A stretch of DNA of 64,000 nt from Escherichia coli. GTDB lineage: Bacteria; Pseudomonadota; Gammaproteobacteria; Enterobacterales; Enterobacteriaceae. Within the stretch, counting starts at the first letter, position 1; every line of letters begins with the position of its first letter. The position numbers were made by a program, and so were the translations under genes. The notes under the pieces are model-generated. The model did not search any database. It was not told the origin of the DNA and saw only the letters and a list, made by a program, of their open reading frames with translations. Location of the stretch: assembly GCF_013122565.1 (NCBI RefSeq), contig NZ_CP053258.1. One strand, 5' to 3'. Below are positions 9,048 through 10,251 of the stretch, in pieces.

Positions 9048-10251
9048 TCACCATCTTTTTGGATTACTGGGAAGTTGTGACATCACATAATCCGCCCACG
9101 CCTGCATCATCGGTATATGCTGATCCAGTAGATCAGTCCGGTGATATGCTGCCTCAACCTTATTTTTCAGCGTGTGGGCAAGCGCCCTTTCCGCCAAATC
9201 CCTGTTCACTACACCAGTCCCTGAATGTTGAACGAAAACCATGTGCTGTTGCCACCCGTCCGGGTATATCACTGATGGCATTCTTTTTACGCAGAAAACT
9301 CGTCAACACCATATCTGAAAGGATCTGCTGCTTTCTGGGAGAAGGAAACACCAGTTCATCATGCAAACCACGTATATTTTCCAGAACGTGAATGGCCTGC
9401 CGGGATAAAGGAATACGATGCTGTATCCTAGCTTTCATTCTTTCTGCTGGTATCGTCCATATCCGCTTATGAAAATCAATTTCAGCCCAGCGCATTCCCC
9501 TGGCTTCGCCCGAACGGGTTGCTGTAAGTATCACCATTAATAACAGTGCTCGGGTAACATTATAAGGTTCATCTGTATACACGCTTGTCGCCACAAACAG
9601 CGGTAATTGCCTCCAGGGCATTGCCGGCTGATGTTCATCACGTCCTCTTGATTGCTGTGGAAGCAAATGTTCAACCACATCAACAGGATTTGCCACACAA
9701 AAACCATGCGCCCAGCCCCACTGCATAACAACATGAATACGCTGTTTAATCCGGCTTGCCGTTTCTGATAAGGTCAACCAGATTGGACGCAGTGTCTCTG
9801 CCACGTCCGCAGCCGTAATCTCATTCAGCGTTTTTGCTCCCAATTGAGGAAACACGTAATTTTCAAGCGTCGACAACCACTGCCTGACATGCTTTGGATT
9901 TTCCCATCCCGGTGACAATTCTGCATGTACACGCATGGCTGCATCGGCAAATGTTGGGATAACAACTTTTTCAGCTTCAGCCTTTTTGATCTCCAGAGGA
10001 TCATCACCTGCAGCAAGTTGCTCTCGCATTATCCGGGCAGTACGTGCAGCTTCGGCAATACTGACCTCAGGGTAAGTTCCCAATCCAGCATTACGCCTTT
10101 TTTGTGTCACCGGACTTACATAACGAAAAACCCATTTACCCCGCCCCTTTACTGAAGAAGGATGAAGGGTCAGCCCTGTAATTCCCCCATGAGGCAATGG
10201 TTTGTCATCAGGTTTGATATGCCTTGCTTTTGTATCAGTCAATACTGCCAT
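9048..10251 (-). pseudogene. int: P4-type tyrosine integrase, frameshifted near 9191-9198
   Basis: ORF 9160-10251 has box I R (TRSGEARGMRW) and HGFRSTFRDW but stops before the catalytic Tyr; an overlapping +1-frame ORF (9048-9281) carries RDLAERALAH...VEAAYHRTDLL...MMQAWADY, the missing C-terminal motifs. Confidence 0.7.

Follow-up and report, generated by a model that had tools for sequence, protein, structure and literature searches.

Near one end of a stretch of Escherichia coli DNA, the integrase gene (int) of a genomic island is spread over two reading frames, with the catalytic tyrosine out of frame with most of the protein. The locus raises the question of what broke this gene, whether the break is real, and whether the island can still move by its own means. 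We examined these points in the window, meaning the whole stretch of 64,000 nucleotides that was analysed (coordinates in Table 1). Overall, the window very probably contains a CP4-like island at serX in which int was inactivated by an 11-bp deletion at a direct repeat, with loss of the island's own excision and integration.

Table 1 Coordinates of the island features in the window
Feature	Position	Strand	Description
YagK/YfjJ-like gene	1..510	minus	Cut by the window edge; private nonsense CAG->TAG at position 93
IS debris	895..3750		ISL3 transposase pseudogene, IS3 fragment, IS256 transposase with internal stop
YfjI-family / DUF3987 protein	3841..5367	minus	508 aa; in conserved int-alpA-yfjI module
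AlpA-family small DNA-binding protein	5392..5616	minus	74 aa, intact; PF05930
Cargo ORF between int and alpA	5711..7561	plus	~614-616 aa; G+C 36-42%
Integrase 3' part, out of frame (+1)	9048..9203	minus	Native residues ~R354/D355 to W404
Integrase pseudogene 5' part	9160..10251	minus	363-aa ORF; 352 native codons, then 11 aberrant (GGKGACPHAEK)
Deletion junction	9196..9202	minus	Single retained copy of 7-bp direct repeat GGGATTT; alignment with intact alleles
14-bp direct repeat CCCCCTCACCGCCA	10413..10426	plus	Last 14 nt of tRNA-Ser serX; integrase-proximal island boundary
IS200 copy	10435..11143	minus	709 bp; 8 bp outside the serX repeat, between island and ycdU

An integrase gene divided between two frames

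In the 5' part of int, the last native stretch (...HGFRSTFRDWCSEQGF) is followed by the aberrant residues and by a premature TAA at 9160-9162, giving an ORF that ends with ...AHGFRSTFRDWCSEQGFGGKGACPHAEK*. The native codons cover the arm-binding and central domains and, with R246, K273, H337 and R340, the greater part of the catalytic domain. The rest of the protein is encoded in the +1 frame, which translates as ...RDLAERALAHTLKNKVEAAYHRTDLLDQHIPMMQAWADYVMSQLPSNPKRW* with the native motifs RDLAERALAH...AAYHRTD...MMQAWADY. This 3' part carries H363 and the catalytic Y373 and runs to the original stop at 9048-9050. The two-frame layout is not a matter of chance, since the out-of-frame tail matches an intact E. 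coli homologue at all residues except one. In addition, a family HMM built on 107 diverse relatives matches the window in two pieces located in adjacent frames (profile 4-343 at 9202-10251; profile 345-390 at 9072-9209). These data bear out a preliminary description of the locus, according to which the frame is broken before the catalytic tyrosine and the motifs E-ALAH, AAYHRTD and MMQAWADY lie in the +1 frame. The break falls between the HxxR motif and the conserved His and Tyr, and the translations, the intact homologue and the two-piece HMM match agree on the frame of the motifs. The window copy does not hold the complete catalytic set Arg-Lys-His-Arg-His-Tyr in one frame.

In the intact 404-aa allele, Pfam identifies Arm-DNA-bind_3 (residues 4-92), Phage_int_M (101-191) and Phage_integrase (232-375). 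PF13356, PF22022 and PF00589 are found in the window product, where the Phage_integrase match covers positions 23-145 of the 172 in the model, versus 23-167 of 172 for the intact allele. Precomputed Pfam results on identical Logan proteins agree with this three-domain architecture. NCBIfam PRK09692 gave 128-186 bits, under its curated cut-off of 434, so it matches at the domain level only. Among 1.84 billion representative proteins, 43,846 relatives were retrieved at E <= 0.001, and nearly all full-length matches among those listed align through query residues 392-397. At the DNA level, the gene is 91.3% identical to an integrase of E. coli O157:H7 strain 611. Judged by its sequence, it is a P4-family (three-domain) tyrosine integrase, probably of the kind carried by serX/serW islands (SRL-PAI / OI-43/48 type).

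Conservation was evaluated on an alignment of 107 relatives (~40% identity). R246, H337, G338, R340 and Y373 are invariant in these relatives, and K273, E358, L361, A362, H363, A372, R375, R382, M386 and W389 are conserved in at least 90% of them. The profile of the 107 relatives reaches lambda integrase (1z1b, 5j0n), and the last lambda residue in the match is 342; it pairs with profile position 366, which corresponds to Y373 of the intact protein. Tyr342 is the established nucleophile of lambda Int. The window product aligns to the profile over positions 5-343 only, and is without both H363 and the nucleophile Y373. The placement of the tyrosine needed the 107-relative profile: single-sequence PDB searches with the whole protein and with the catalytic half returned only fragments of N-terminal and central domains and did not place it. 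PDB matches to macro-H2A were rejected as chance. Like lambda integrase (PDB 1z1b, 5j0n, 1p7d), the intact protein is a tyrosine recombinase with arm-binding, core-binding and catalytic domains. However, the two are distant relatives only (profile E ~1e-8) and the family of the arm-binding domain differs (PF13356 here). The window copy is a pseudogene of a P4-family integrase whose ancestral gene had the full catalytic set, as in E. coli JNE23-001 and A30.

A deletion between short direct repeats

Alignment with three intact alleles gave the nature of the lesion. Intact alleles contain two GGGATTT copies 11 bp apart (GGGATTT-TCGC-GGGATTT), whereas the window is without one copy and the TCGC spacer. 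The closest intact allele reads GAACA GGGATTT TCGC GGGATTT GGCGG and the window GAACA GGGATTT GGCGG. Over a longer stretch, GAACA[GGGATTTTCGC]GGGATTTGGCGG in the intact form is opposite GAACAGGGATTTGGCGG in the window, with 11 bp gone; the latter was taken as the deleted form and GGGATTTTCGCGGGATTT as the undeleted form. A perfect repeat is confined to the JNE23-001/A30-type allele, which has TTT (Phe) as codon 352. In the other alleles this codon is TAT (Tyr) and the repeat copies agree at only 5 or 6 of 7 positions. The TTT allele at F352 gave rise to the perfect 7-bp repeat 11 bp apart, and exactly one repeat unit was lost in the deletion. Because its endpoints fall exactly on the repeats, replication slippage (slipped-strand deletion) or microhomology-mediated deletion is the most likely mechanism. 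The frame shifts after Phe352 and ends 11 codons on.

The preliminary description had attributed the broken frame to a single-base insertion at 9191-9198, possibly a sequencing or assembly error. The position was right to within a few bases (junction at 9196-9202), but the cause was not. The loss of 11 bases has the frame effect of a one-base gain, which is why an insertion had been deduced, and the +1 downstream frame is indeed what a single extra base would give. However, it is precisely here that all the intact alleles have 11 more bases, and the window has no extra base relative to them. Moreover, homopolymer-type errors do not typically take the form of an 11-bp loss between 7-bp repeats. 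When positions 9000-10500 were compared by megablast with 5,426 complete E. coli genomes, a near-full-length match was obtained in 1,258, and every match among those listed was 10-11 bases longer than the query.

The deleted allele was also found in independent data. An exact-pattern search retrieved the identical junction in the complete genome of E. coli PapRG-06-5 (baboon, Gambia), where the same gene is also split by IS3 and is already annotated as frameshifted in RefSeq. Exact-pattern searches also recovered the intact 404-aa gene in the sister islands of JNE23-001 and A30. With a 71-nt junction query against the 5,426 complete E. coli genomes, PapRG-06-5 was the only match at 99% or more among those listed, and the remaining full-length matches listed span 82 nt. 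In Logan, six contigs of independent sequencing runs (SRR11451224, ERR10017525 and SRR29133892 among these runs) carry the exact 363-aa product, and one of the contigs is 100% identical to the window across 10,141 bp. The same IS200 transposase gene lies upstream at all three places shown, which represent the six contigs. Since this junction was also found in a complete genome and in several read sets that are independent of the window, an assembly artefact is very unlikely to be the source of the frameshift. The error scenario is not borne out by these occurrences, and an inserted base, whether real or erroneous, is almost certainly not what broke the frame.

We then considered whether the deletion occurred once or twice, using an alignment of the 10 kb of island common to the window, PapRG-06-5, JNE23-001 and A30. 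At 68 columns, including the 11 of the deletion itself, the window and PapRG-06-5 are alike and differ from JNE23-001 and A30; 36 differences are private to the window and 44 to PapRG-06-5. The chromosomal flank of the window is also closest to that of PapRG-06-5 (9 mismatches in 2.2 kb, versus 33 for A30). The simplest reading would be a single deletion in an ancestor common to the window and PapRG-06-5, with separate later events in each, which in PapRG-06-5 include IS3 and further indels within int. A recurrent slippage hotspot, hit independently in the two lineages, is unlikely. At 11 bp apart, perfect 7-bp repeats make a classic substrate for slippage, and the two islands differ at ~0.6% of sites. 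Nevertheless, the two carriers are mutual closest relatives in both island and flank. The allele is otherwise absent from the 5,426 complete genomes, an absence that says little on recurrence because only JNE23-001 and A30 were seen with the slippage-prone perfect-repeat allele.

The island at serX and its decay

The window has a single copy of the 14-bp boundary repeat, located 161 bp upstream of the start of int. Read on the opposite strand, this copy is TGGCGGTGAGGGGG, the sequence found on either side of OI-43/OI-48 in O157:H7 and of SRL-PAI in Shigella flexneri (PMC3064760). OI-43/48 and SRL-PAI carry P4-family integrases and excise by recombination between the repeats (PMC3064760). The layout of the serX/serW group is found here: int lies by the ycdU-side copy of the 14-bp repeat, and ycdU follows after IS200. 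The serX-side copy is present in JNE23-001 and a complete serX is kept at the far end in PapRG-06-5. In the window, the island covers positions 1-10426 and its serX end lies beyond position 1; ARAGORN detected no tRNA in the 64 kb. The window beyond the island is Escherichia chromosome, with ycdU-ymdE, a long gene cluster, dgcT, pgaABCD, phoH and efeBOU. Gene identities in the window rest on ORF sizes and on the annotation of relatives.

The long same-strand cluster (13268-31659, minus strand) is located between ymdE and dgcT and includes a 1270-aa ORF at 27847-31659. From relatives and Logan calls, its first genes encode an ABC permease (MacB_PCD/FtsX), a TP_0789-like outer-membrane lipoprotein-sorting protein and an acyltransferase. 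JNE23-001 does not have this cluster and carries instead an IS3 beside a truncated ymdE-like (ACP S-malonyltransferase) gene and dgcT.

The entire island of JNE23-001 measures ~32 kb from ycdU to serX. Its genes are int, a 614-aa unknown, alpA, yfjI, IS debris, yfjJ and a chaperone-usher fimbrial operon, together with a distal block of CP4 type (GTPase, antirestriction, RadC-like, YeeT, CbeA/CbtA, DUF957 and DUF4942 genes). The window contains the CP4-type module, that is int, alpA (PF05930), DUF3987/YfjI and YagK/YfjJ; the distal block lies outside the window and was observed in the complete islands of JNE23-001 and PapRG-06-5. With SRL-PAI and OI-43/48, the island shares its site (the 3' end of tRNA-Ser serX beside ycdU), the 14-bp repeat and the position of int at the ycdU-proximal end. 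In contrast to those islands, which excise (PMC3064760), its integrase is frameshifted and without His363 and Tyr373. The cargo also differs, since here it consists of the chaperone-usher fimbrial operon and CP4-type genes, and no ter, ure or resistance genes were found in the relatives' islands.

The other close parallel is with the CP4-type cryptic prophage-like elements of E. coli K-12 such as CP4-57, which has the gene order intA-yfjH-alpA-yfjI-yfjJ... The order of the module is alike (int, small unknown gene, alpA, yfjI (DUF3987), yfjJ), as is the far end, with the same genes from GTPase to DUF4942, including the RadC-like (JAB) one. The differences lie in the attachment site, serX here and ssrA there, and in the inactivation of the integrase here.

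AlpA is the usual regulator or excisionase-type partner of integrases like that of the island. No PADLOC match was obtained for YfjI or AlpA, and no NCBIfam match for the genes neighbouring the integrase in the island. No match to the cargo ORF between int and alpA was obtained in Pfam, NCBIfam or PADLOC; many other E. coli islands carry it, along with alpA and yfjI, at ~80% DNA identity. The ~1.5 kb between this ORF (616 aa) and the int end (7562-9047; G+C 34-39%) contains no ORF longer than 111 aa and no Rfam family at the gathering threshold, and may be a remnant of degraded genes.

Fragments of ISL3, IS3, IS256 and IS66, as well as broken zinc-ribbon and ydeO genes, are common to all relatives. 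As these include the relatives with intact int, the island was already decaying when int was hit. The changes that the window lineage gained after the deletion are the YfjJ-like nonsense mutation, R382H and the IS200 copy. The nonsense mutation, which none of the three related genomes has, is a further indication that the island is still decaying in this lineage. R382H is a private change in the out-of-frame tail (coding-strand G->A at 9118) of a residue conserved in at least 90% of the 107 relatives; as a single observation, it would fit relaxed constraint after the frameshift. The IS200 copy consists of a Y1 transposase ORF (10542-11000) and an Rfam STnc490 RNA (11010-11133, 140.8 bits). JNE23-001, A30 and PapRG-06-5 do not have it; the Logan contigs with the truncated integrase do. 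The later lesions in both lineages give no suggestion of selection to keep the integrase.

Two further observations concern the related islands. In PapRG-06-5 (locus L011), three further island genes are pseudogenes, namely a DUF5983 gene with an internal stop, a frameshifted yeeT and a frameshifted HTH regulator (6066-6557, 7466-7688 and 11867-12573); all are intact in JNE23-001. In JNE23-001 (locus L010, 280-416), an extra 179-bp block annotated 'RtT sRNA' lies between ycdU and the island. The block begins with 19 nt that form a second copy of the 3' end of serX; it is missing from the window and A30, and may be the leftover of an earlier integration at the same site.

Fate of the truncated integrase and of its island

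The gene cannot encode a complete tyrosine recombinase. Its 363-aa product would keep the DNA-binding domains as well as Arg-I, Lys, His-II and Arg-II, but neither His363 nor Tyr373, so that it should not cleave DNA. In SRL PAI, int is required for precise deletion of the island, and stabilisation of islands through loss of mobility functions is a general principle (PMC7545054). Since the nucleophile is lost, int is needed in SRL PAI and the family HMM found no second integrase of int's family in the window, the island would be unable to excise by its own means. Loss of self-excision and self-integration is a reasonable reading of these sequence data. The island would be fixed in place unless another integrase acts in trans, and a paralogous serW/serX-type integrase elsewhere in the genome could rescue it.

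Could the two-frame layout itself be functional, through a programmed +1 ribosomal frameshift or through the 77-codon downstream ORF (9048-9281) acting in trans? The frames do overlap by ~120 nt and the downstream one has an ATG at 9279-9281, but we find this hardly credible. In the homologues, int is one continuous ORF, and the split is confined to the deletion allele; the two-frame layout is not conserved. A ribosome shifting past the junction would still leave out residues 353-354, and one shifting at the stop would lose His363. No obvious Shine-Dalgarno sequence is seen in the ...cgtaaaaaga that comes before the ATG of the 77-codon ORF. Moreover, IS3 and further indels in the PapRG-06-5 gene, and R382H in the window, point to an absence of selection for function.

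The truncated protein could instead have been retained for DNA binding without catalysis, for instance as a dominant-negative factor that sits on arm and core sites, stabilising this island or related serX/serW ones. This is very improbable, even though the 352 native codons are still open, the arm-binding and central domains are intact and conservation of the promoter-proximal region reaches 99%. Any recent frameshift near the 3' end would leave the 5' part open, and in the sister lineage this part was destroyed by IS3. Two of the five differences between the window and JNE23-001 upstream of the break are non-synonymous, and five are too few to show constraint. That the 363-aa product is expressed and, as a dominant-negative or site-occupying protein, locks the island or interferes with other serX/serW-type islands has a slighter chance still. 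If true, it would be a domesticated integrase remnant rather than plain debris. Inactivation of int by the 11-bp deletion, with no retained role, is the reading that we prefer.

The high-pathogenicity island of Yersinia enterocolitica offers a precedent, as it is locked in place with a prematurely terminated int. In both cases, the island would have lost its own recombinase by a small mutation and kept its cargo; the lesion differs in being, here, a lineage-specific 11-bp repeat-mediated deletion. The gene is an ordinary pseudogene: the integrase family, the kind of island and the site are all well known, the allele is already flagged in RefSeq, and nothing in it opens a new question. For annotation, the gene is to be described as an integrase pseudogene resulting from an 11-bp deletion, and the island as a probable non-autonomous remnant. 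With regard to genome plasticity, it would be one more documented island fixed by decay of its own recombinase.
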